From Cyanidioschyzon merolae (Eukaryota): a DNA stretch of 64,000 nucleotides. This document shows positions 26,972 through 62,350 of this stretch, piece by piece. A program made the translations under genes and the position numbers. The notes under the pieces were generated by a model that was given only the letters and a program-made list of their open reading frames with translations, was not told the origin of the DNA and did no database searches. The DNA lies in assembly GCA_000091205.1 (NCBI GenBank), contig AP006501.2, one strand, 5' to 3'. Each line of letters begins with the position of its first letter. The first letter of the stretch is position 1.

Positions 26972-28360
26972 TTAAATAGACTGGCGAATCTCGTCCCGTA
27001 ATCGTCGCTCAGTGTCTCGAGCAATCAAGCGATGGAATCTAACGACATAATAGGCAACGACACAGCGCAAGATCGGGAGAAGCGCGATCGATAGCACCCC
27101 AAAGTTGCCTGGAGCGAAACCTGCGTTCAGTGCACCCATCAAGTACCCATCAAGACCGAAAGTGATCCAGAATTTTCGTTTGGTGATGCCTCGCAGTGTC
27201 ACTCTGGCGACCTCATCAGCTGGCAGAGCAGCGCCAGCGGACATTTCCGTGCACGCTCTGGTGGCAGGCGGCTTGCGTCGATTTTCCACGTCAAAGCCGC
27301 GTGTCAAGGTATCCGGCGGAAATACCACCGAAACACCAATACCGTAGGGCCTCCCCTCATATACCAGCGTTTCTGCGAGACCGCGCAAGGCATACTTTGC
27401 TGGTGCGTAGGCGCTGTATCCGAAAATCGCTGCGAACGCTGCCATCGACGAGAAGAACACGATGTGTCGCGGTCTTTCCGAGCAGTACGGCACCCGTATT
27501 CGAACATCACCGCGTCTGTGCGTATGCTCCGCGACGATTGCCTCAAGAACCTCGCGTTTCCATTCACGAAAGGCAGCCTGAGCGACCAGAGCTGCAGACA
27601 TATAGTTGCACTCCATTTGCGCCCTAAACTCTTCCACTGTGAACTCTTCGAAATAACCCGGTAGTGCACCGCCAGCACAGCAGATAACAACGTCATAAGT
27701 CTCGCGTTTGTTCCCAAAGACACGGGCAACACCCCCTGGAGTTGAGACGTCTGCTTGTATTGTTTCAATCACCGGTTGGTGTCCCGAATCGCTGCCTTGA
27801 GCTGCCTTGGGGCGGCTCGAGAGCAGCACCTGCTTGGCAGTTTCCAGTCGCGACGCGTCCCTTCCTACGATAGTGAGGTGTCGCGGCGGCCCTGGTGAGA
27901 CACTAGCCTCACAGAGCATGCGCGCTATCTCGAAACCAATGCCGCTCGTCCCGCCCGTGATCAGTACCCGCAGGTTCTCCCACCGAATCGGTTGCGAACA
28001 GTCCCAGCGTTTCCTCTTCTGAGGCTTGCTCCGAAGGCCGTCGCGGTCAGCGCGACTTGATTGAAATATTCGGAAGCGGTGGAAGAGTCCCTGAATCAGG
28101 GCCATCAGGAAAGATGCAACCACAAACGCAAGCAGTAAACAGAGAGCGTTCCCCGCTCGTCGTTGCGCTTCGGTGAGCAGTTCCCGTGCTGCTCGGAGAG
28201 GCGGTGCGTCGAGCCAAGACGGCGTACGTTCTAGAAAAGTGAGCTTTGGCAAGCTTCCCATCTGCAGCGACACGAGAAGACCCGGTGCTCGGCAAGGAGT
28301 CGCGGTGTCAGCCACAAGCGAGTCTCTACTTTGTACAACCTGAACAGAGAGGCGTAACAC
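26972..28360 (-). CDS. KDSR: 3-ketodihydrosphingosine (3-dehydrosphinganine) reductase, SDR family
   Basis: LITGGTSGIGFEIA (Rossmann TGxxxGIG), YSAYAPAKYALRGLAETL (catalytic YxxxK), then PPDTLTRGFDVENRRKP...LGLDGYLMGAL...FAPGN aligning to the human KDSR C-terminal region (PPDTDTPGFAEENRTKP...LGSDGYMLSAL). N-terminal TM helix present. The upstream Met choice (28360 vs ~28261) is unresolved. Confidence 0.8.
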   Translation of the reverse strand: MLRLSVQVVQSRDSLVADTATPCRAPGLLVSLQMGSLPKLTFLERTPSWLDAPPLRAARELLTEAQRRAGNALCLLLAFVVASFLMALIQGLFHRFRIFQSSRADRDGLRSKPQKRKRWDCSQPIRWENLRVLITGGTSGIGFEIARMLCEASVSPGPPRHLTIVGRDASRLETAKQVLLSSRPKAAQGSDSGHQPVIETIQADVSTPGGVARVFGNKRETYDVVICCAGGALPGYFEEFTVEEFRAQMECNYMSAALVAQAAFREWKREVLEAIVAEHTHRRGDVRIRVPYCSERPRHIVFFSSMAAFAAIFGYSAYAPAKYALRGLAETLVYEGRPYGIGVSVVFPPDTLTRGFDVENRRKPPATRACTEMSAGAALPADEVARVTLRGITKRKFWITFGLDGYLMGALNAGFAPGNFGVLSIALLPILRCVVAYYVVRFHRLIARDTERRLRDEIRQSI

Positions 28361-28481
28361 CTCCGTCTATTTGGCGGCGACTCCGCCAGGTCTACGACGC
28401 CTCCCATCCCTGGTACTTCAGCGCACCTGCGCCACAAATGGCGCGAAGCGCTCGGCGTCGCCGCAGGACACCGGCAAGCTG

Positions 28482-28622
28482 GTGTGCCATAGGAGTGTGG
28501 TATAGGCGTGTGTGCCACAGGAGTGTGGTATAGGCTTGTGCTATAGGAGTGTGTGCTATAAGGGTGTGCTATAGGCTTGTGCTATAGGCTTGTGCTATAG
28601 GCTTGTGCTATAGGGCGTGTGC
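28482..28622. repeat. minisatellite, ~11 copies of a 12-13 nt unit gtgtgctatagg(c/a)
   Basis: Direct read ...ggcttgtgctataggcttgtgctataggcttgtgctatagg... with degenerate copies upstream. Confidence 0.88.
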
Positions 28623-30499
28623 AATGAAGGTAGAGCACGGAGCAGGCGTTTGGTTTCTGTATGTCGACGTGTTTTCCGGGCTTCTTGTACCTGTCCAGTC
28701 CTGGGAATGGAAATGCAATCGTAAGTTCATTCGAATTGATTCATAGGTCGAGGATGCTTGGTGGTGTTTTTGGAGCGAGTCCTTGGACTGCATGCAGCTG
28801 GAATTCGTTGCGTCACCAGGATCAGGATGATTCGCAATAGAAGAGACAAAGAGCTAGGAAACTGACCGATATCATGATCCAGTGTTTGCGAAGACGTCTC
28901 GGCTCTTCCTGTTTCCTTACGTAGCGTATGTTGAAAAATCACGCATTGTGCACGTTTTTGATCGGTCTGTTTCAAGGCTAGTCATTGCCACAGCACTGCG
29001 CGTCGCTGGGCTGACGAGGAAACGAAAACTCGACTTGGTGCACTGGCGAGTGCTTCACAAGCTCATGGCAAAATTTCACTGAACGTGTCATGTCGAATAA
29101 TTATCGGATTCGTTCGAAGGACAAAAGCTCATTTTTTTGTGACTATTGACGAAACTGGATTCGACATCCGTACGCTACCGCTTACGAGATATGCAGGCAG
29201 TGGTTCTCGTCTCTTCTAATTGCATGGAAATTGGTCTTGGATTAGCACGTGGGTCATTGCGTCGATTGGCTCGAGTGGGGCGTGCGTTACCGCGTTCCAC
29301 GATGAGCAGGTAGACGGATCGAACTTGCTAGACTTGATCTCCAGACCTGACTTTTCTTCCCACACTAGTTTCAACACAGACAGCACCGCTTTCCACGAAT
29401 TCTAACTCATATGGGACATTGTGCGCTCGCATATCCAGCTTACAAAGTACTCAGCATCGGATTACCCAAAAGGAGCTCGTCATTGGAGGGCACGGCACCG
29501 GGTACGGAAACGGAGGCGGACATCGAATGGAGTCCTCTGCACCAGACATAAGCATGCACAGAACGATGAAGCATCCCGTCGCGTGTCAACGAGCAGACCT
29601 CACCGGAGCAGGTGCCGTGGACATAATGGAATACCTGACCAAGGTCGAGTGTCGACGGTTCTCCAGCGCACCAAAGTTGTATACAAAGATGATGATGAGA
29701 CTAGCAAGCGGTGCGTAGCTTGCAGCTTTTGCGAGTGCATGAAATGCATGCACAACAGTCCGAAGGACGGGAAAAGAGGACAAAAATACCGAAACGAGTT
29801 ACTAACAACCAACGTGCTACCAGTTTCTTTCCTCCTCTTCGGTGAGCGTTACAAGAGGAAAAAGTTTTCCCAATTCTCAAAAGGTTACCATCTAGGCGGA
29901 AGGTCTCGCGAGCCGGACGAGCCTGCCGGGCATACGCTCTGTGCGCCTCTGCAGCGACCGATGCTGTAGTGAGATCGCCGCTGCCCTTCGGCAACGCAAC
30001 TCAGTCTGGGACTCGCAGCGAGTATGCTGCATTTCAGCGTCGCGCAGGTCGCAGAGGACCCCTAGCATATCGCATCGCGCTGTCGCAGGCAATACGTCTT
30101 TCTGCGCATCTTGCAGGCTCCCTGAATGACAATAAATCCCGATTCCATGTCGTGCAGAACACGCTTCGAGCCGGCGCCCTCAGCGGTATGACAACGCCGT
30201 TCTGTCTCCGTGATGCATCGGCATCAGCGGTGTAAGCGTTAAGGCGCGTGCTCGAAGTGGCACTCGGCGCACGATAGAACGTACGAAACGAACAATATAC
30301 CCAAAACGAAGTACAAGTAATGGAACTAGAAGGTAGGTGCTTCATCATGGGCGATTTCCCGAAAGCCGATACCTATCCCGCAATCTGGGATCCATGGTCC
30401 AGTTTAGACGTTTTGTCATCGGAAAACGAATCGACGCTTAGCGAGCGCACCTAGGAGATCTGGCAGGCATGAGACACGACGCGTACGGTGCCGTTGTTG

Positions 30500-32958
30500 A
30501 AGGGAAACGCGATTTTGATCAGTAGCGTGTTATTCAGCTGGAAAAGTTGGATTTCCGTTCAGGACGTAGCAACGTATAGTTTTTCAGTTCATTTGTGTTT
30601 CAAAACTCAAACAAGTCTAGTCAAGTGTTTTTTTCGTAGTATATTGGAGAAGCGTTCACAGAGTGCTTCTTTTCAAAAAAACTAAAAGAAAAGGAAAGTT
30701 ATGAAAAACTGAGTCGACGATCCTGGAGGCCCAGGGTCGCTGGCTGCCGGAGATGAACACATTGTTTCGAGTCCAGAAGAAAGAGGAAGAGAAGAAGAAC
30801 CGAAAGAAGGAGGCCCGACGCCAATGGCAGCAAGAAAGACGACGATACGACGAGATGGTGGTGAAAGCCTGTCTTCTTAATTATATCAAGGATCTCTACA
30901 AGCACAAATTGCAAGAGGACATCCAAAACCGTGTCGACTCGTACTCTAAGAGTATTGTCAAGGCCTCGTCAGGACTGATGCATTTGGCGAGGGAGATGTA
31001 CGGAGACGTGGCGCACATGGAAACGGTCGAGATTCCTGACGAGTTTTTCGACATGACCTTTCTTCGTCACCTGATGCTTGGTACAGCGAAAGCGCGGAAG
31101 GAAAATGTGCTAGTGCATGCCCTCCACGAAAACTTCGCGGAATTCCGCTTCGAGGGTAATCGATACAGCGGTGACGGAAATATTTACACCTACGGGCGAT
31201 GAAGTACCTCACGAACCTGAAGAACCATTTGACGATGAACCTCAAAAGTTTCACGATACGTTCCGTGTTTGGACTCTACCCGGACCCATATCGCAAAGGG
31301 ATATGGGCCATCATCAATGGCATCACGAACGATCGCTTTCATGAACAGGAGATCGAATTCTTCGACAAGAAGACATTACACAGGAGAAAGAATGAAGCTT
31401 CTGTGATCTGCGCGGTCATACAAGAGTACCATGCAGTACTGGGGCTGGCGAATCCAGCAGACAAGATATCAGCTACGAAAAAAGATAAGAAATAATGTTA
31501 TCACCTTATCCTGCGCTATTTTGTGTTTTTGGACCGAGAACTCGAACGCAAGGCCGAAAGGCAGCTGAGTGGGGGAAAATGAAGAGTTGTTGGAACGGAA
31601 GGCTGCCCTGATGGGGAAGTGCTTCAACGTCGTTCCGTTGTGCAGCATCAAGTCACATTTTGTGAATATCGACTCCGGAGTCCTTCATGGCATCGTGAGA
31701 GAGATCAGTCCGGAGTTCGATGTAAGGAAGATAGAGTCCACCGACGAAATGCGGGAGACGTTCTAGAAAATTATCCTTAATTTCAAACGTCTCAAAGTGA
31801 GCAAGCAAAACATATTCACTGGGATGATCGAAACCGATGGAGTAGCCATGTGTGTACACTATCGGCGGTTGAAAACAGATCGGCCAGTTCCGTCCTCGGC
31901 TTCGCCCGTGACGAAGGATGAGGAAAACAAAGAGGTGGATCCTGCGACGCAGAAGGTGCATGAGAACGACTTTGTCGTTGGCGCACACCCCGGAAACACA
32001 AATATCGTAACCATCGCTGTGCCCAAGCGTCCGGTAGATGGTACTGACGGCAACTTATGTCAGAAAGACATGCGGCTTTTAAAGCTCTCGAGAGCGAGAT
32101 ACTATCGAGAATCCGGTATGATGAATGGAAGAAAGAAAACTGAGATATGGAATGCAGGATTGAAAGAGCACTTGGGAGCTTTGAGCGAGGTGACGAGCCG
32201 CGGAACGGACTTTCAGGCTTTTCTGAAATTCATGGAAGTTCGCTTTGCTCATTGGGAGGCGCTGTGGGAGGAGTATGCAAAGCCCCGGTGGGCTCGTTTG
32301 CGTATGAACTTGTATTGTGGTAAGCAGCGGGCGTTTGCCAACTTTTCAATCAGTTGAGTGCCTTGAAGGAGGATCAAAGTCAGAGGTTCGTTGTGGCATA
32401 CGGAGCAGGGCGTTGGAAGACCCAAAAAGGTACTACGCCAGCTCCAACGACGAGAACGTACAAGGAGTGTGCACGGCGTTTCGTTACGATACCTGTATGT
32501 GAGTTCCGAACGTCCTATACATACCATGAACTGGGCTGTACACTTCAGAGAGTGGAGATAGAAAAGTGCCAGAGGAGCCCCGAGGATATAGCAAAGTGCG
32601 GACCGCTGACGGAAGAGCAAATGGAAAGGAGGGCGAAAGTTCGTGGCCTACTCGCATTAGTAAGTACAACTCCCAACGGCAAGAAACGGATGGAGTTTGT
32701 TAACCGAGATTTTAACGCCGCTATCAATATACGGAGATGCGCGGTGATGGAGAAAAGACCTCCAGAGCTGACAAGTGAGAATTTTGTTGGACAATCTCTT
32801 AAAGTGGAACTATATGAGAAAAAATTTGAACCAGCCGTGGGTGGCCGGTCGAGAAGAACGGGGAGACGACTGCACGTTAGACGGAGACGTCTTGTCTAGG
32901 GCGGGTTTCTCGCCACTACTGTAAACCGCTTGCGGCAGCGTTTTTCTTTGAAAGGCGT
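30500..32958 (+). mobile_element. TnpB/Fanzor-like (OrfB-family) element relic, copy A, inside an AT-rich island
   Basis: Five consecutive same-strand ORFs (30753..31202, 31199..31495, 31569..31766, 31797..32357, 32354..32899) together encode a ~680 aa protein. It has a K/R-rich NLS-like N-terminus and a C-terminus ...KCQRSPEDIAKCGPL...KRMEFVNRDFNAAINIRRCAV, the Cys-rich finger plus RDxNAAxNI RuvC-III motif specific to TnpB/Fanzor. Local GC is well below flanking DNA. A 3' block of ~60 nt beyond the stop is shared with copy B and ends near 32958. Confidence 0.55.
30753..32899 (+). pseudogene. disrupted TnpB/Fanzor-like nuclease gene
   Basis: Segments are joined only through a frameshift at 31199-31202, a frame change between 31495 and 31569, a single in-frame TAG at 31764-31766 and a 1-nt frameshift at 32355-32359. 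The last is shown by copy B reading straight through the homologous spot (GQQRELAAFVQSAHPETRLQ). No GT...AG pairs restore the frame. Residues that would align to RuvC-I/II (GAHPG, GAGRW) appear substituted. Confidence 0.55.
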
Positions 32959-33052
32959 GCGGTGGTATCACGTGCACAAAGCCACACGCTATTGCCTTCT
33001 CGTGCGTGCTGCGTTTCAATATTTATAGCCGAGTTGGCCCGCTTCGATTCCG

Positions 33053-35391
33053 TTGCTGAAGCCGCGGTCGATAAGCGCAGAGCTGATGAGCGATGTTTCG
33101 CTCCAAGGTGCGGAAAACGTCTCTCCTGTGCGTGAGCAGTTTCAGCAGCCTACGTCTAGTGCAGCAGATCCGCGAGAGCCCGCGGTCGGCAGCCGAGACT
33201 CAGCCGGCTACCCCCGAGAGCACAACGTTACCCCAGGTGTTCGGTCTAGTTCGGGTACGCAGCATGAGCGTCAGCGGACTGCGGCTTTAGCGGCCTGTGT
33301 TCGAGCGCTCGGCTGTTTCGGTGGTGCGCGAAACTCTCAATGGACGCAGGCCCAGGCGAAGCGGGAAACGACGACAGGCGCTACGGACCAATCAGCGGAA
33401 CCGTCGGTCCCGTGCGAGTCGAAAGTCGGGTCAGCAGTTGCGACTGAAAATACTGAGGACGTGCTGGGTGCTGTTGACGGCGACCACGGCGCCCCGGCCG
33501 ACGTGGACGCGGAGCGTTCTTCAGAGGTTTCTTCGGCGAGCGAGGAGCTTCCATTTCGCTCCCTGTATCGGCGGGCGCAGGTGAAATGGGCCCGCCGGCG
33601 ACTCGAGAAGCAGGTTCAGAAGCTGCTTGCATTTACCTCCACACAGCTTAGTAACCTGCAGCATGTTCGTTCCGGACAAAAGTTGGATGCCGAGTTTGCG
33701 ATCCTCGCACGAATATATACCAATGCACATATCGACGAGGATTTCGCAAGGTTTAGTCGTCAGGAGTTTCGAACCTTCGCGGAGCACTTGCCGCTGTTTC
33801 TGAATTACTTGTTGCATTCGCGGCCGCTCGATGCGCCGGCGACGAGCGCAGCGCAACGCAACGCCTGGCGAGAAGTTGCCTCTTCGACGAGAGAGCGCAT
33901 CCGCCGCCATCAGAATACTCGCAAGCTAATCGAGACGCATTTGTTGCGGCGCTGTAGCGAGTCTGTGCGTTTCGCCCTATTTGTTTATTGGTATTTGGAT
34001 GGTTGTCTGCAGCTTGGACCTGAATCGGACCGGAAGGATACCCTCCGAATTATTATTGAGATTGAGAACATCATGTCGAGGAGCATCACATGCGCGACGC
34101 CCTCTTCACAGGTCGCTGGGGCACGCCCCCCGGTCAAGTCGTTCATGGCGTCGGATACGCCGGACGCGGCGACAGCGGACTCGGCCCCGGCGACATGGAG
34201 CCCCGGTGCTGCGCTTGCGGCTCCCGCCGGTGAAGTGCTCAGCCCAGCAGACGCTGCCGACGTTGGGTCTGTTGAGAGGATCGTGCACCAGCGCGCGATC
34301 GTCCATGAGATCGGTAACGAGTCTCGAGGCGAGGGCGTCTTCAGAGATCGCATGCTGCAGGATGAGACATGTTTGGCAGGCATCCTACCTGCAGAGCATA
34401 CGATCGCAGTGGATCTCGACGCGGATGCAGCTGACTGTGCAGTGCGCTCTGCGGACTGCAGTTTTCCAGAGGCGCCTGGCGTTCAGTCAACGACAGAACA
34501 AGAGCCGCGCATGCTCGCCCAGTCAAGCTTGATGTCGAATACGCGCGTTTTTCCACGAGAATCCATAGAAACTGGCCCTGAACGGGAGATAAGTTTCGCA
34601 TATGTTTCCCGTGGTAATCTTTTTCATGCACAGCTAGATTTTATGCGCGCGCTCATATCCATCTCCGAATTGGCGCTAGGCCTGAATCGATCGCAAAGAT
34701 CACGATTCGTCGTGAGGGAACTAGGCCGCCTGAACGCGCTTGTGGAAGCAGAGCGGCGATATGTTTTTCTGCCAACGGAGCGCATTCCACACCGGGTGCT
34801 TCGCATCCTCGCAGACGAGTCACATGTGTTCTCGACAAAGGAACATGCGCCGTACCTGGCCATTGTCGAAGTGCAGGATCTGGAGTCAACCAAGCTCGCA
34901 GAGCGCGAGCCCCGCAAGACATTGGCACGCACCATTGGCGATTGGCTGCATCGGGCAGGAGAGTATCGCCCGCGAGCGCCCCGCTCCGAACAACGACATA
35001 CAATGACCTGGTTCGCTTCACCACGCGGCACCGAAGCCGTCAAATCCCCTGAAAGCGGTCTCGCAGCAGCAACATCACCAGCGACGACTCCCGATCCACC
35101 GACAAGCCCAGCGTCGCGAAGCGCACCCGCTGTCGATACGCCTTCACCTGCAGGAGAGGAGCTTTCACAGAGCCGTGGCGGGAAAAACGCCTCCGTGTCC
35201 GAGAAACGCAGTGCACGCACGCGATTGCACGCACAGGAGCGTCACGCACGGAATCGCGCCCTGCATGGCGTCGCGAATGCGGCGGCGCATTCACTGACGT
35301 TTCCTGGCCCTAATCAGGCGGAGGCACCGTTCCCATTCTCAACGCGAACAGGCACGGATGCCGCTGAGCTACCACCGATGACCCATCGGTC

Positions 35392-35429
<38 letters not shown>

Positions 35430-36529
35430 GTCTACGAGCGGACGGCGTCGGTTCCAGTCATCCAAATCTTGAGACTGCAGCTGCTTCGGCGACGGGTGAC
35501 GGGATGACTGCATCGATGCCTGCATGTAGCGAAGCACAGGATGCGCGGGATCTTGGAGCGGAACTGGAATCTGGTGAAATCAAAAACGCTTTGGCGGAAT
35601 CGCGTGAAGCATGCTCGACACCGACCAGTGTTGGCAGCGATCGTTGGCGACGTCTCTTTGGGGAGCGCTGGGCTGAAAGGGTTCAGCGTTTGCAGCAGAC
35701 GTCACCATTTGGCCGCATGCCCGGTTGGCGACTGACCTCTGTAATCGTGAAAAGCAAGGACCAACTGCGACAGGAAATGTTTGCAACCATGTTGATTGCT
35801 GAGTTTGCGCGCATCTTTGAGTCAGCTCGTCTTGACGTTTGGCTATGTCCGTACCGCATTGTTGCAACTGGGGCCGATTGCGGATTCGTGCAAGTAATCC
35901 CCGATGCGCCCTCCATTGATCAGATCAAGAAAGCTTTCCACGGTAACATGACGCTTTCTGGCTATTTTGAGGAACGGTTCGGAGCGCGCGGCAGCGCTAC
36001 ACATCGCTTGGCGGTTCGCAACTTTGTGAAAAGCATGGCCGCATACTCCGTTATCACATATCTCCTGAACATCAAAGATCGACACAACGGAAACCTGCTC
36101 ATTGATGCTGAAGGCCATATCATCCACATTGACTTTGGATTCTTCTTCACCAATTCACCTGGTGGCAATATCGAGTTCGAGAAGGCTCCCTTCAAACTCA
36201 CCTGGGAACTTGCCGATGTGATGGGCGGCCCCGACTCGAACGCGTTCCGCCTATTCCGACGACTCTGCGGGCATGCTTACGCCGAGGCCTGTGCGCATCG
36301 AAACAAGATCATGCTCATGGTAGAGTTCATGATGATGGGAAATGAGTCGCTGCCGTGCTTCCGCGGCGGGGCCGACCTCACCCTCGAGCAACTGCGAGAG
36401 CGGTTCATGCCGCGCCAGACCCGTGTCAAACGCATTGCGCACATGAACGCGCTTATCGATCGAAGCAGTAACCATTGGACGACGAGATTTTACGATCGCT
36501 ATCAGCGGTGCTGTACTGGAATTTATTAG
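33053..36529 (+). CDS. phosphatidylinositol 4-kinase, PI4KB/Pik1 type
   Basis: C-terminal catalytic domain ...[24 protein letters not shown]...FKLTWELADVMGG...LPCFRGG...FYDRYQ aligns residue-by-residue to human PI4KB ([24 protein letters not shown]...FKLTTEFVDVMGG...LPCFHGS...LYDGFQ). Poly-Gln tract encoded by (CAACAG)n at ~35393-35428. The exact start Met is uncertain. Confidence 0.85.
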
Positions 36530-57737: not shown

Positions 57738-60700
57738 ATGGCAACCTCAGATGCAACCTTTGGGGCGGTTGAATCTGATACAGCGGGATCGCTTCTGAAC
57801 TTTGAGCTGCCAGATCAGGACTTTTTGCTGCAGCTCGAGGCAAAAGTCCAGCAGCTCTATGGGGCGCGGTCTGAAACAGATCGCAAGTCGGCCCAGGAGG
57901 AGCTGACGGCGCTCCAGATGCATCCACAGGCGTGGATGCGTGTCGATAAGATTCTCGATTCGAGCACGACTAGTGAGCCCTCCAAGTTTTTCGCGCTACA
58001 AATTCTCGAGTCTTTAATCAAGTATCGTTGGAAGACTTTGCCGACCGAGACACGAGAGTCCATCAAGCTTTATGTTCAGAACAAGGCAATACTCTTGTCG
58101 TCGTCGGCGGAATCTCTGGTACGTGAACGCACGTTCCTTTCAAAGCTGAACCTCATCTTGGTGCGAATAGTGGCCCAGGAGTGGCCCTCCCGTTGGCGCT
58201 CGTTTATCAGCGACGTTGTGAACGCGAGCAAAACGTCGCCGACACTTTGCGAAAACAACTTGCATATTCTCCGATTGCTGAGCGAGGAGGTGTTTGATTT
58301 CTCAGCTGGGCAAATGACGCAAGACAAAATCGACGAGCTCAAGACGACATTCAACCAAGATTTTAGTGAGGTTTACGACCTCTGTCAGTATGTATTCGCA
58401 CAGCGAGTAATACTGCAGCAGATGCAGCCATCGCTTCTTGTGACTACGGTGCAGACGCTAGAGAAGTTTTTGTCGTGGGTTCCTTTGGGCTATATCTTCG
58501 AGACCGACCTTTTGGAGACGCTGCTTGAGCTGTTCGATTACTCTGCAGAGCTGCGCAATAGTGTGATGCGTTGCCTCGTTGAGATTGCAACACTCTCTGT
58601 TGGTCCCGAGTACGACGAAAGATTTCTGTTTCTCTACATGACACTTCTATCAAAACTCGCCGTTGCGGTACCACTGGAGGTCGACATTGCTGCGCACTAC
58701 GACCAGGCCAGTGAAGCAACCCAGTCTTTTATTATGGACTTGGCGCTGTTCCTCACAGGCTTCTTTGGGGCGCACGCAGCGCTGCTCGAGCAGTCTTCGG
58801 ACCCGGCACATCGTCAGGCACTCGTGACGGGAAACATGTACGTCGTGAAGATTGCTCGAGTCAACGACGTGGAGGTTTTCAAGGTCTGCCTCGAATGGTG
58901 GCGGAGCCTCACGGAGAGCCTATATCGGGCTCTCTTCTCCATGTTAGACTACGCCGTGGGAGAGCGGACGCCACTCACTTTGGACGCGGATCGACCCAAT
59001 TTCGAGCGACTCGAAGATCAGCATGCACGTCGCCAGCTCTACGCCAGCGTACTATACCAGATTGCCCTGGTCATGATCCAGAGAATGGCGAAGCCAGAGG
59101 AGGTGCTCATTGTAGAAGACGAGAACGGCGAGATCGTGCGGGAAACCACGAAGGACACCGATGCGTTGGCGCTATACAAGACAATGCGGGAGACGTTCAT
59201 TTTTCTAACCCACATTGACCCGCTGGATATTGAAACCATCATGATTGAGAAGCTCGATCGTCAACTTGACGGAACCGAGTGGAGTTGGCAAAATCTGAAC
59301 ACGCTCTGTTGGGCCATTGGATCCATCTCTGGTACCATGAGCGAAGAGTCCGAGAAACGCTTCCTCATTCATGTTATCAAGGATCTCCTGCGATTATGTG
59401 AGGAGAAGCGAGGAAAGGACAACAAAGCCGTGGTCGCAGCGAACATCATGTACGTCGTGGGGCAGTACCCGCGCTTCCTGCGAGCACACTGGCGTTTCCT
59501 GAAAACCGTGGTGAACAAGCTTTTCGAGTTCATGCATGAGCTGCACCCAGGAGTCCAGGACATGGCGTGCGACACGTTTCTGAAAATCGCGCAGAAATGC
59601 CGAAGACAGTTTGTCATCGTACATGCAGGTGAACATCAATCTTTTGTGAACGAGATGCTGGACAATCTGGAGAGCATTATCGGCGATCTGGAGCCGCATC
59701 AGGTGCACTCTTTCTATCAGTCTGCCGCAACGATGATCAGTGCAGAGACGGAGAGTAGTACGCGGGAACTCTACATCCGCCGTCTCTACGACGCGCCGAA
59801 TCGTCGCTGGCGATCCCTTTTGGAGGAGGCGACGCTTGACCAGAGCTTGCTGCGGGATAGGAATCGCATGAAGGAGCTCGTTCACGTTTTGCGCCTGAAC
59901 GTGCGAGGCGCGCAGGCTTTGGGTCCCCTCTTCTATCCCCAGCTGGTGCACATTTACATGGATCTGCTCGCGCTGTACCGGCAATTTTCGCAGATGGTCT
60001 CCAATGCGGTCGCATTAGGGGGCATGATCGCAACACGAAGCACCGACGTCAAGAATATGCGCGCCGTGAAGAAGGAGGCACTCCGTCTGCTAGAGACATT
60101 TTTCGAGCTAGTCGATCGTGACCCCGAGGTTCTGCACGCGGCAGCGGAGCAACTGGTGGAGCCGCTCTCCGGCCCCATTCTCGGCGACTATGCGCAATCC
60201 GTACCGGATGCCCGTGACGCGGAGGTGCTTACGCTCTACGCTGTCATTATCGAACATCTGCGGCCGTACGCAAATATGCTGACGCCTCTCATACCAGTCA
60301 TATTCCGATCGTGTTTCAATGCGACGCTAGAGATGATTACGACGAATTTTGAGGATTTTCCGGACCATCGAATAGGTCTGTTTCAGTTGTTGCGAGCAAT
60401 TAACACGTCTTGCTTTTCCGCGCTGTTCTCATTGGATCCGGACCCGGCAGTAGCGGAGCAGTCGTTCCAGCTGGTCATTAACGCTATAGTATGGGCGTTC
60501 AAGCATACGGAGCGGAACGTTGCCGACACAGGACTGCAGACGCTGCTCGAGCTCCTTCGGAATCTGGATAGTAGCGGTTTCACCGAGTACTTTTACGAGC
60601 GCTATTACTTGTTCATTCTTAACGATATTCTTGCAGTGCTTACGGATACCTTGCACAAACCAGGTTTCTCGCTACAGGCACAAGTGCTCATGCATCTTTT

Positions 60701-61079
60701 CACGGCAGCTCGTCGGGGTCAAGTTCGATTGCCGCAAACCGATGGTGGCGAAGCGACTGGCTCCACCACTGCGATGGCCTCTGAGACGATGGTACGCGAG
60801 CATTTGCAAACGCTCCTGGAGAACGCCTTTCCGAATATGGGCCCTGTGGCAGTGCGTCAAGCGGTTGATGGCATGTTCCTCTTCCTGGACGACGAGCGCC
60901 TCTTCAAGCAGCACTTGCGAGATTTTCTGGTCCGGACCAAAGAGTTTCTCGCAGGTGACAATACCGATCTTTACGACGAGGATCGCCGATCACTAGAGAC
61001 GAATGCCCAGAGGGCCTTAGCTGTGGTCCCTGGCATGTCCAAGCCCAGCCAAGCAGCCGATTCAGACGACGAAGACTGA
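57738..61079 (+). CDS. XPO1: exportin-1 (CRM1)
   Basis: 1113 aa single exon. Long blocks match human CRM1, e.g. EWPSRWRSFISDVVNASKTSPTLCENNLHILRLLSEEVFDFSAGQMTQ, DGTEWSWQNLNTLCWAIGSISGTMSEESEKRFLIHVIKDLLRLCEEKRGKDNKAVVAANIMYVVGQYPRFLRAHWRFLKTVVNKLFEFMHELHPGVQDMACDTFLKIAQKCRRQF, RNVADTGLQ and the C-terminal HLRDFLV.TKEF. Confidence 0.96.
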   Translation: MATSDATFGAVESDTAGSLLNFELPDQDFLLQLEAKVQQLYGARSETDRKSAQEELTALQMHPQAWMRVDKILDSSTTSEPSKFFALQILESLIKYRWKTLPTETRESIKLYVQNKAILLSSSAESLVRERTFLSKLNLILVRIVAQEWPSRWRSFISDVVNASKTSPTLCENNLHILRLLSEEVFDFSAGQMTQDKIDELKTTFNQDFSEVYDLCQYVFAQRVILQQMQPSLLVTTVQTLEKFLSWVPLGYIFETDLLETLLELFDYSAELRNSVMRCLVEIATLSVGPEYDERFLFLYMTLLSKLAVAVPLEVDIAAHYDQASEATQSFIMDLALFLTGFFGAHAALLEQSSDPAHRQALVTGNMYVVKIARVNDVEVFKVCLEWWRSLTESLYRALFSMLDYAVGERTPLTLDADRPNFERLEDQHARRQLYASVLYQIALVMIQRMAKPEEVLIVEDENGEIVRETTKDTDALALYKTMRETFIFLTHIDPLDIETIMIEKLDRQLDGTEWSWQNLNTLCWAIGSISGTMSEESEKRFLIHVIKDLLRLCEEKRGKDNKAVVAANIMYVVGQYPRFLRAHWRFLKTVVNKLFEFMHELHPGVQDMACDTFLKIAQKCRRQFVIVHAGEHQSFVNEMLDNLESIIGDLEPHQVHSFYQSAATMISAETESSTRELYIRRLYDAPNRRWRSLLEEATLDQSLLRDRNRMKELVHVLRLNVRGAQALGPLFYPQLVHIYMDLLALYRQFSQMVSNAVALGGMIATRSTDVKNMRAVKKEALRLLETFFELVDRDPEVLHAAAEQLVEPLSGPILGDYAQSVPDARDAEVLTLYAVIIEHLRPYANMLTPLIPVIFRSCFNATLEMITTNFEDFPDHRIGLFQLLRAINTSCFSALFSLDPDPAVAEQSFQLVINAIVWAFKHTERNVADTGLQTLLELLRNLDSSGFTEYFYERYYLFILNDILAVLTDTLHKPGFSLQAQVLMHLFTAARRGQVRLPQTDGGEATGSTTAMASETMVREHLQTLLENAFPNMGPVAVRQAVDGMFLFLDDERLFKQHLRDFLVRTKEFLAGDNTDLYDEDRRSLETNAQRALAVVPGMSKPSQAADSDDED

Positions 61080-61307
61080 GTATCTTCCTCGTCCGAAAAT
61101 CGCAAGCGCAATTCGAATCAAACGGAAACGCGAGCAGCAGAAACCCAGGAAACGATGTTGTTGCTGGTGATGAACGCGAGACGCAGTGCGGACCCTGCAC
61201 CAGCACGCCCTCGACATCTCGTATGCCGCCGTCCATCAAAGCGTTTCCTGCTCTCCGGGCAATGGCAGTGCAAAGCTACGAAATCCGGATTCGCTGACGA
61301 CAGCGAA

Positions 61308-62350
61308 CGCCTTTCTAAAGTCGAAAGCAGTCGTCAGCGATACAGTGGTGGCGGCGAACGCCCGCCCTAGACAAGACGTCGCCCACTGATGTGCAGAGGC
61401 CTCCCAGTCTTTCTCGACCGGCCACCTACTACTGCTTCCAACTTTTTCTCATGTAATTCCACCATGAGAGGTTGTCCATGAAAATTCTCTCTCGTCATTT
61501 CTGGGGGTCTTTTCTCCATCACCGCACATTTCCTTATATTGATAGCAGCGTTAAAGTCTCGGTTCACGAATTCCATACGTTTCTTGCCATCTCTGGTTGT
61601 ACGTACTAATGCAAGTAGTCCTCGAACTTTCGCTCGCCTATCCATTTGCTGCTCCGTCAGCGCTCCGTATTTTTTACAATCCTCAGTACCCCGCTGGCAC
61701 TTTTCCACAGAGACCCTCTGAAGTGTACACCCCAGCTCATGGCGTATGTATGACGTTCGGAACTCATCTACAGGTATCGTAACGAAACATCGTTCGCACT
61801 CCCTGGACGCTCATTCCGAGTCGCTGTAAACCGGAAACGAAACTCTCCTCGACAAGCCATGAAAGTGGTGTTGTGGCTTTCCGCCAGACACGGTGGCTGT
61901 ATTTGCCGTGCCCGTGGCCCTGCAGGCGTGTTTCGGGGTGCGCTGACTGCACAAAAGCGGCGAGTTCGCGCTGCTGCCCTAGTATCTGGATGCTGGCGAC
62001 TCCCCGGCACAGATACCTTACGATGTGCGGACGGAGCATGCTGCTTCAGCACCGTAAGAACGACGCGCTCTCATGCGCGTTCCCTTGTGATCCAAGATAT
62101 GATCCACAGAGTGATAGTGGCGGCTAGCACGGAGCGTCTTCCGCATCGACTGCCGATCTGGGAACTGCGGCCCAGGGTTCGGAGTTTCACGTCACGAATG
62201 GTCCATACGCTCACGAGCGGTACTCGAAGCGGGCGCGCTGGACATTACACACTGCTTTGCTGCACGAGAACAGTGCTATGCTCGGGGCCGGCTAGAGTAC
62301 CTAAAGAAAAGTCAGCGTGAACGTCGCTTGCAGGTACGGTGCATGCCACG
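61308..62350 (-). mobile_element. TnpB/Fanzor-like element relic, copy B (3' fragment)
   Basis: ORF 61367..61708(-) encodes ...KCQRGTEDCKKYGALTEQQMDRRAKVRGLLALVRTTRDGKKRMEFVNRDFNAAINIRKCAVMEKRPPEMTRENF...GRRLV*, ~80% identical to the copy A C-terminus. Upstream frames still show homology (GQQRELAAFVQSA, VWRKATTP) with stops and frameshifts. The ~60 nt after the stop (tctagggcgggcgttcgccgccaccactgta...gaaaggcg) is conserved with copy A, then diverges at ~61308 into the XPO1 3' flank. The upstream limit (~62350) is approximate. Confidence 0.55.

Follow-up and report, generated by a model that had tools for sequence, protein, structure and literature searches.

A dead Fanzor1 fragment beside the exportin-1 gene of Cyanidioschyzon merolae carries the right end of a dispersed red-algal element, a putative omega-RNA scaffold

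Introduction

Three Fanzor1 (Fz1) nucleases, SpuFz1, PpFz1 and GtFz1, have been shown experimentally to work with an omega-RNA that combines a scaffold from the right end of their own element with a guide from the flanking DNA (PMC10432273, PMC11423790). As seen by cryo-electron microscopy, Fz1 omega-RNAs are 75–150 nucleotides (nt) long and have in common a stem-loop 1 (SL1) of 7 base pairs (bp), to which SpuFz1 and PpFz1 add one further stem-loop (SL2) before the guide (PMC11423790). In GtFz1, the omega-RNA overlaps the last 17 codons of the gene (PMC10432273). Fanzors have already been reported from 'rhodophyta' in a survey (PMC10530073), and no paper mentioning Fanzor was among the top full-text literature results for Fanzor combined with several Cyanidiophyceae names. 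Here, we describe a Fanzor1 element found in two decayed copies, A and B, in a 64,000-nt stretch of contig AP006501.2 of the red alga Cyanidioschyzon merolae (assembly GCA_000091205.1), hereafter the window. We hold with high confidence that copy B, which lies next to the exportin-1 gene, is a dead fragment of such an element, whose right end is formed by the non-coding tail behind the stop codon. By analogy with the characterised systems, we propose with moderate confidence that this tail encoded the omega-RNA scaffold of a Fanzor1 protein, the guide lying in the flank. Taken as a whole, the explanation of copy B as a dead Fanzor1 element whose tail is its right end and most likely an omega-RNA scaffold appears to us to be probable.

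Among the described systems, SpuFz1 of Spizellomyces punctatus is encoded by Spu-1 elements (Saito et al. 2023, PMC10432273, PDB 8gkh), which resemble the red-algal element in having just one open reading frame (ORF), many partly decayed copies, no internal transposase and a two-stem-loop scaffold, putative in our case. The red-algal element is larger (~3.2 kb against 2.1 kb), adds a non-coding 5' segment of ~650 nt and a variable 25-residue tandem repeat, would have its scaffold in a tail of ~60 nt, and shows neither the 30-nt terminal inverted repeats nor the conserved CA by the left end that characterise the SpuFz1 element. PpFz1 of Parasitella parasitica (Xu et al. 2024, PMC11423790, PDB 9cf0) is the best-scoring solved relative of the red-algal protein, a match seen with a profile, whereas a single sequence finds nothing. 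The omega-RNA of PpFz1 is the smallest known, 75 nt in total with SL1 and a short SL2, and thus near the size implied here (a scaffold of ~60–64 nt plus the guide). Its target-adjacent motif is ATN; from ~12 left flanks no counterpart could be defined in the red-algal family. GtFz1 of Guillardia theta (PDB 9cer) is likewise a Fanzor1 from an alga but gives the weakest of the three PDB matches, and its omega-RNA, 150 nt with four stem-loops, contrasts with the red-algal tail of ~60 nt.

The bacterial IS200/IS605 elements with TnpB (e.g. ISDra2) are also similar in several respects: an RNA-guided RuvC nuclease, a guide RNA to which the gene's 3' end and the transposon's right end both contribute, subterminal hairpins and no terminal inverted repeats. 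The red-algal element differs from them by its eukaryotic host, the lack of a TnpA gene, a much larger protein (~700–750 residues) and only weak similarity to the Cas12f1-like TNB domain of Pfam. With no TnpA inside the element, we do not assign it to IS200/IS605 or to IS607.

Copy B and its match to copy A

Copy B is what remains of a ~3.2-kb element after loss of its 5' part, namely the last ~145 codons, the stop codon and a tail of 61 nt. Its features are the following, with the way in which they were delimited in brackets.

61306..61812, minus strand: copy B, a 5'-truncated, decayed ~3.2-kb Fanzor1 element (blastn and Smith-Waterman against copy A)
61370..61812, minus strand: coding remnant of copy B (three-frame translation, alignment to copy A)
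61367..61369, minus strand: TAG stop codon of copy B, which in many family copies can form the base of stem-loop 1
61306..61366, minus strand: post-stop tail, the right end of the element and a putative decayed omega-RNA scaffold (45-copy alignment)
61346..61369, minus strand: remnant of stem-loop 1, UAG GGCGG ... CCGCC A CCA (per-copy RNAfold)
61306..61331, minus strand: remnant of the terminal stem-loop 2, CUUUC ... GAAAG, with ~5 bp and outer pairs left
61286..61305, minus strand: flank outside the right end, its first 5 nt (CGCTG) fitting a weak family bias yGkTG; by analogy with SpuFz1, this would be the guide position if the tail is an omega-RNA

In a blastn comparison of positions 28001–34000 with the window, 32454–32964 matched the reverse strand of 61812–61301 with 78.9% identity over 516 columns (E = 4e-120), and Smith-Waterman alignment of the two copies gave the same end points. 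Both reading frames end with TAG, at 32897–32899 in copy A and at 61369–61367 (minus strand) in copy B. A preliminary description of this locus had noted that the similarity continues past the stop codon and then ends abruptly in both copies. This is indeed the case: the post-stop tails, 32900–32959 in copy A and 61366–61306 in copy B, are identical in 45 of 63 aligned columns, and these 60–61 nt are followed by five weakly similar bases (CGGTG in A, CGCTG in B), after which the similarity is gone. CTTGTCTAGGGCGGG, a 15-mer, is present once in each copy and nowhere else in the window, whereas 0.06 occurrences would be expected. The distance of copy B from the exportin-1 stop codon, put at ~230 bp, is likewise accurate, the measured value being 226 nt. 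Other figures had to be revised. The remnant had been described as ~113 codons at ~80% identity, a count that starts from the first GTG of the ORF; the alignment to copy A comprises 145 codons with 76.6% amino-acid identity. The interval given for copy B, up to 62350, overshoots by ~540 nt, as the copy ends at ~61812, and nothing in 61813–62350, nor on to 63200, resembles copy A or other family copies.

The coding remnant of copy B retains RuvC-II (VDEFRTSY) and RuvC-III (FVNRDFNAAINIRKC), two motifs that align with their catalytic counterparts in PpFz1 and SpuFz1. RuvC-I and everything N-terminal to it, approximately the first two thirds of the ORF, are gone. The ORF of copy A contains at least three frame changes as well as in-frame stops, and the relatives P0001–P0004, which are intact there, read through the same points. 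Both copies in the window are dead, decayed pseudogenes, and no function is expected from either of them.

A common right end in dispersed copies

Two copies alone could not exclude that their shared boundary was a coincidence of two truncations or alignment noise, the more so as the tails of A and B agree in just 45 of 63 columns. This reading is refuted by the rest of the family. In 45 copies with mutually unrelated 3' flanks the similarity ends at one position, 60–65 nt after the stop codon, so that the probability of a coincidental boundary is practically nil. For this set, drawn from six metagenomes, loci with shared flanks were removed, and the 3' flanks are mutually unrelated by blastn. 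Similarity continuing past the proposed ends in other copies was not seen: no paralogous copy matches copy A past 32966, and coverage falls from more than 80 matches to zero just after 32959–32966. Since the 45 copies have a common end, the boundary is the true right end of a mobile element, as had been suggested for the post-stop block from copies A and B. The right end is fixed to within ~5 nt, at 32959–32964 in copy A and at 61306–61301 in copy B.

The consensus of the 45-copy alignment reads ...GTC TAG GGCGCG TTTC TCGCC ACTACTGTACAC CGCCGG CGTCGTTCGA CTT TCGAACGGCG TT and is followed by unrelated flank. It can also be written as ...GTCTAG GGCGCG TTTC TCGCC ACTACTGTACACCGCCGG CGTCGTTCGACTTTCGAACGGCGTT, again with unrelated flank behind it. 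Its last part is ...GAACGGCGTT, after which there is only the weak 5-nt bias yGkTG. Five copies with otherwise unrelated flanks (L023, L018, the second copy in L036, L052 and the left arm of L073) have TGTTTCCAGGGGT directly after GGCGTT, and several further copies have GTTGGTGCG in common after the right end. These sequences may reflect a target preference, or some subfamilies may have a short 3' extension.

Family size and the full-length element

The reconstructed protein of copy A matches 42 relatives with 55–82% identity, all of them from JGI metagenomes. In some of these relatives the stop codon is read through (TAG to CAG), and the extension 'QGGFLATTV' is the tail in translation, indicating that the tail is present in other copies too. 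A scan of metagenome contigs yielded 344 encoded relatives, and the loci analysed here represent the best 79 of these 344 matches. Loci L002–L004 turned out to be the same locus as copy A, being 98–99.5% identical to it through the flanks. Altogether, the family occupies at least 45 distinct dispersed insertion sites in thermoacidophilic red algae (Cyanidiophyceae). Copy B is 81–84% identical to family copies elsewhere and 78.9% identical to copy A. Judged by these identities, A and B are not sister copies, and, as they are not each other's closest relatives, their co-occurrence in the window is not evidence of local transposition. The earlier proposal that the family has transposed within this chromosome region therefore does not follow.

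Full-length copies are ~3.2 kb long (e.g. L065, 1443–4604). They start with a non-coding segment, S, of ~650 nt, whose outer end reads (T)GATTTTGTTTCCGATGACAAAACGTTTACATTGACC..., and contain no long conserved ORF other than that of Fanzor. We found no TnpA or other transposase gene inside the full-length copies, and segment S is without a conserved ORF. The best explanation is that the element is a non-autonomous transposon whose single gene encodes a Fanzor1 RNA-guided nuclease. Along most of the ORF, pairwise identity is 0.66–0.79 at third codon positions and ~0.9 at first and second positions, which indicates that the protein was under selection while the family diversified. This places a well-populated Fanzor1 family in Cyanidiophyceae, red algae with very small and intron-poor genomes. 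The family leaves the known workings of Fanzors unchanged and is an example of an already described kind of element.

The last ~45 codons (window positions 32765–32899) lose the codon periodicity, with identities at the three codon positions of 0.77/0.84/0.78, 0.87/0.86/0.79 and 0.77/0.80/0.74 compared with ~0.9/0.9/0.7 upstream. This would fit an RNA element overlapping the ORF, similar to the overlap in GtFz1, or a weakly constrained C-terminus. Just upstream of RuvC-I the ORF includes a tandem repeat of 75 nt (25 residues, '...DPATQKVQDNDLVVDA.KHEE.K.A'), present at 31907–31984 of the window and in most loci; its copy number ranges from 1 to ~5 between family copies. Two loci, L025 (~923–1010) and L035 (~883–979), have a tail-only fragment 3 kb upstream of their main copy, in each case beginning ~35 nt short of the stop codon. 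We considered an ORF-less 'ghost' family and ruled it out, as the two loci are 84% identical over ~1.9 kb; the fragments are probably one old truncated copy in diverged lineages represented in the metagenomes.

The protein belongs to Fanzor1

An exhaustive HMMER search of a library with one representative per 50%-identity cluster returned 1516 proteins with E <= 1e-3, mostly of 600–700 residues. In an alignment of 55 relatives (A4), which are 28–39% identical to P0001, the Asp of DPG, the Glu of DEFRT and the motif RDxNAAxN are invariant or nearly so. The A4 profile matches exactly three distinct PDB sequences, all of them Fanzor1 and nothing else: PpFz1 (9cf0, E = 2.7e-20), SpuFz1 (8gkh, E = 4.8e-14) and GtFz1 (9cer, E = 1.6e-7). 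In these matches the DPG, DEFRT and NRDxNAAxN motifs align with those of the solved nucleases. Neither phmmer with P0001 nor hmmsearch with the shallow family profile A3 gave a relevant PDB match. A Pfam scan of the window ORFs and of P0001 and P0006 produced for copy A and P0001 only a sub-threshold match to the Cas12f1-like TNB domain (E = 0.2), and the same domain was matched in 11 of the 55 relatives (best 3e-5). By profile comparison the protein family belongs to Fanzor1, and the label 'Fanzor-like' in the preliminary description proves apt. The RuvC catalytic residues are kept in the 55-sequence alignment but not in the window copies: in copy B the first region is gone, and in copy A His replaces the first Asp, RuvC-I reading GAHPGNTN where the relatives have GADPGNTN. 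The motifs EFRTS and NRDFNAAINI are present in copy A.

Structure of the tail and its proposed role

The folding suggested in the preliminary description reveals two recurrent structures across copies, stem-loop 1 at the stop codon and a terminal hairpin. According to per-copy RNAfold predictions, SL1 has a GGCG/CGCC core, the pairs of which are kept in 41–44 of the 45 copies, and many copies add inner pairs as well as UAG:CUA pairs that involve the stop codon itself. In copy B the core is intact, and the lower stem is damaged (CUA to CCA). The two stem-loops are separated by a conserved unpaired linker, ACUACUGUACAC, which is ACTACTGTACAC in the tail consensus. The terminal hairpin has 8–10 bp and ends 0–2 nt before the element boundary. 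Within the terminal 28 nt, at least 8 bp form in 73% of the copies compared with 17–24% in flank, ORF and shuffled controls, and the mean minimum free energy is -8.9 kcal/mol compared with -3.1 to -4.5 kcal/mol in the controls, although p-values for the hairpin overstate independence because the copies are related. In 41 of 45 copies the terminal hairpin is more stable on the sense strand (-8.85 versus -5.15 kcal/mol), with ~1.8 G:U pairs each. Such a bias points to a sense-strand RNA or to top-strand single-stranded DNA rather than to a double-stranded palindrome.

Two subfamilies of the terminal hairpin, CGTCGTTCGA-CTT-TCGAACGGCG and AACGTTTTTC-TTTT-GAAAGGCGTT, differ at 7 of 25 positions, and both form a 10-bp hairpin, with registers shifted by two. 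Seven random substitutions preserve such hairpin stability in 2.7% of trials, and in 0.7% when placed at the same positions. A compensatory change from G:C to U:A, TTCGA/TCGAA to TTCTA/TAGAA, is present in L062 and L041. In the second register, there are 23 double-sided changes where 13.9 are expected, a number reached by none of 500 shuffles, and the share of paired cells is 67.3% versus 63.8%, a modest excess reached by one of 500 shuffles.

In position, in size (60–64 nt) and in having two stem-loops in the stretch from the stop codon to the right end, the tail is similar to the guide RNAs of SpuFz1 and PpFz1. The putative scaffold would thus consist of the GGCG/CGCC stem-loop at the stop codon, the single-stranded linker ACUACUGUACAC and the terminal stem-loop of 8–10 bp. 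If a copy were active, transcripts that run through the ORF and past the right end would carry 15–20 nt of flanking sequence at their 3' end, and these would serve as the guide. The Fanzor1 protein, bound to the scaffold, would cleave guide-matching DNA beside a target-adjacent motif. A scaffold of ~60 nt would be compact, and it could be tested with a protein reconstructed from the family consensus. The earlier suggestion that the tail looks like an omega-RNA scaffold thus holds in part. What speaks for it is that hairpins are retained from copy to copy, are more stable on the sense strand and are placed and sized as in published Fanzor1 systems, whereas the tail shows no excess conservation and the covariation in a fixed register is weak.

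Several results weigh against our interpretation. Overall, conservation of the tail does not exceed that of four-fold degenerate sites (mean pairwise identity 0.68 versus 0.71; Mann-Whitney p = 0.79), and its conservation relative to the flanks is already explained by its lying inside the transposon. For SL1 together with the subfamily-1 register, the share of paired cells equals the shuffle mean (71.9 versus 71.8%). RNAalifold applied to all 45 tails recovers 3 pairs only, which we attribute to decayed copies and to the register shift between subfamilies, both of which defeat a single consensus. Variants with TAG changed to TAA lack a compensating change, leaving the lower three pairs of SL1 unsupported. 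No Rfam family matches 32300–33100, as even at E <= 10 there were chance-level matches only. No terminal inverted repeats like those of SpuFz1 join the two termini, and neither a target-adjacent motif nor a consistent target-site duplication could be defined from the ~12 left flanks. An AlphaFold2 model built on A3 had a mean predicted local distance difference test score of 35.7 and was unusable, so that Fanzor1 membership is based on sequence profiles only. Finally, the ORF is intact in none of the 79 loci, and the activity may be extinct. The only evidence for SL1 is its invariant 4-bp GGCG/CGCC core; within the tail, the GGCG and CGCCACTACTGTACAC blocks are the only ones that stand out in conservation. 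Extra conservation of the tail was considered as proof of function and rejected, the tail being equal to four-fold degenerate sites.

These results bear on a different reading of the tail, namely that it is only a cis-acting right end for a transposase supplied in trans, or the Fanzor mRNA's 3' untranslated region, or both, without any role as a guide RNA. The hairpin would then be a structure recognised by a protein or a recombinase. A tail conserved no more than synonymous sites and weak covariation in a fixed register are what this reading can point to, as is the spread of a derivative with two inverted right ends to at least four sites (see below). On the other hand, the sense-strand bias of the hairpin, which arises through G:U pairs in 41 of 45 copies, is not expected of a binding site in double-stranded DNA. 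On balance, we consider a purely cis-acting tail rather unlikely and favour the omega-RNA scaffold.

Element ends and mobility

Apart from a preference for T at position -1, the ~12 left flanks have no pattern. When the left end is compared with the reverse complement of the right end, the best match covers 21 nt and is subterminal: GACAAAACGTTTACATTGAC near the left end (L065, ~1458–1478) corresponds to GTCAGTTGGAGACGTTTTGTC just before the stop codon (window 32876–32896), set back 15 nt from the left end and 62 nt from the right end. Compared with shuffles its score is marginal (z ~3.3), and older inverted repeats may have left it as a relic.

One derivative of the element consists of two 3' halves joined head-to-head, with the right end and tail facing outward on both sides (L073, 2429–4489). 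Its junction (at about A 31945 | 31889) recurs in L070, L077 and L036 and, more diverged, in L069; L072 belongs to this group as well. The left arms are 94–95% identical between loci and only 74–78% identical to their own right arms, implying that the composite spread as a unit, to at least four sites. This suggests that the right ends carry the cis-determinants of mobility and that right ends alone appear to be sufficient. It is also in keeping with a tail that serves both as the end of the transposon and as the gene for the guide RNA, as happens in other Fanzor and TnpB elements, and it argues against a strictly strand-specific mechanism of the IS200/IS605 type.

This last point matters for the possibility that the element is mobilised as single-stranded DNA, as IS200/IS605 elements or Helitrons are, with its hairpin read by an HUH-type transposase encoded elsewhere. 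Helitrons have ends of the form 5'-TC ... CTRR-3', with a hairpin 10–12 nt before the 3' end, and insert between A and T. The red-algal right end is ...GGCGTT(yGkTG), its hairpin lies 0–2 nt from the boundary and its flanks are without an A/T pattern, so we do not class the element with Helitrons. Movement as single-stranded DNA would agree with the absence of terminal inverted repeats and of recognisable target-site duplications, and with a subterminal right-end hairpin that is better formed on one strand; moreover, some Fanzors co-occur with HUH-type transposases such as those of Helitrons (Saito et al., PMC10432273). However, no transposase gene is present inside the element, GGCGTT is not the CTRR of Helitrons, the flanks show no A/T insertion, and two inverted right ends are hard to square with a strand-specific chemistry of left and right ends. 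We therefore regard this mode of movement as improbable. A further idea takes together the lack of terminal inverted repeats and target-site duplications, the strand-specific terminal hairpin and the spread of the derivative with two right ends. The right-end/omega-RNA module might itself be what mobility depends on, instead of a classical transposase that acts on a left end paired with a right end; an unrecognised single-strand or recombinase mechanism could use the module as its substrate, or the module could act via RNA-guided cut-and-copy. We give this idea, too, little chance of being right.

The exportin-1 neighbourhood

The gene on the other side of the right end of copy B is the following.

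57738..61079, plus strand: exportin-1 (XPO1/CRM1) gene, a single ORF of 1113 residues, stop codon 61077–61079

XPO1 and copy B are convergent, with the right end of copy B at 61306. The XPO1 protein shares 73% identity with its Cyanidium caldarium counterpart and 81% with one in GCA_041825655.1, and its other best named matches are also from red algae. Long genes in the window are uninterrupted ORFs, such as XPO1 at 57738–61079 and a PI4-kinase-like ORF at 33053–36529. Together with the XPO1 matches, this puts the eukaryotic host among the Cyanidiophyceae. No Fanzor fragment lies downstream of XPO1 in related species (L081–L083; XPO1 81–85% identical), and these loci gave no precise empty site, as their intergenic DNA is too diverged for alignment. 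For the annotation of the window, the stretch downstream of exportin-1 is a transposon relic and not a gene or an XPO1 regulatory element. The sole public contig that encodes an identical XPO1 protein, the Logan short-read contig SRR31784488_411761 (L001), ends 359 nt past the XPO1 stop codon, inside copy B (at window ~61438); assemblies break in this way at dispersed repeats.

Copy A and other features of the window

Copy A has the following features.

30431..32959, plus strand: Fanzor1 element body of copy A, with 5' leader, decayed ORF and tail (coverage by 80+ paralogous matches)
30753..32899, plus strand: Fanzor1 pseudogene of copy A (ORF list and three-frame translation)
32900..32959, plus strand: post-stop tail of copy A, the right end and a putative omega-RNA scaffold
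32897..32918, plus strand: stem-loop 1 of copy A
32938..32958, plus strand: terminal stem-loop 2 of copy A, 9 bp
29652..30430, minus strand: 5' segment S of copy A, ~650–780 nt, without a conserved ORF

Segment S of copy A is inverted relative to most copies (compare L065, 1443–2110), an orientation also found in L044, L076 and the first of the copies in L055. In copy A the segment is bracketed at 29652 and 30431 by a direct repeat of 21 nt, TCGACGsTT..GCGCACC. The arrangement could be an inversion or a head-to-head partial copy. The G+C content, ~56% across the window, falls to 49% inside copy A. Short repeats of 70–75% identity, unrelated to the Fanzor tail, connect the DNA to the left of copy A with far-off parts of the window: 28942–29101 with 46234–46073, 28748–28837 with 2007–2096 and 6106–6017, and 30150–30216 with 54932–54864.

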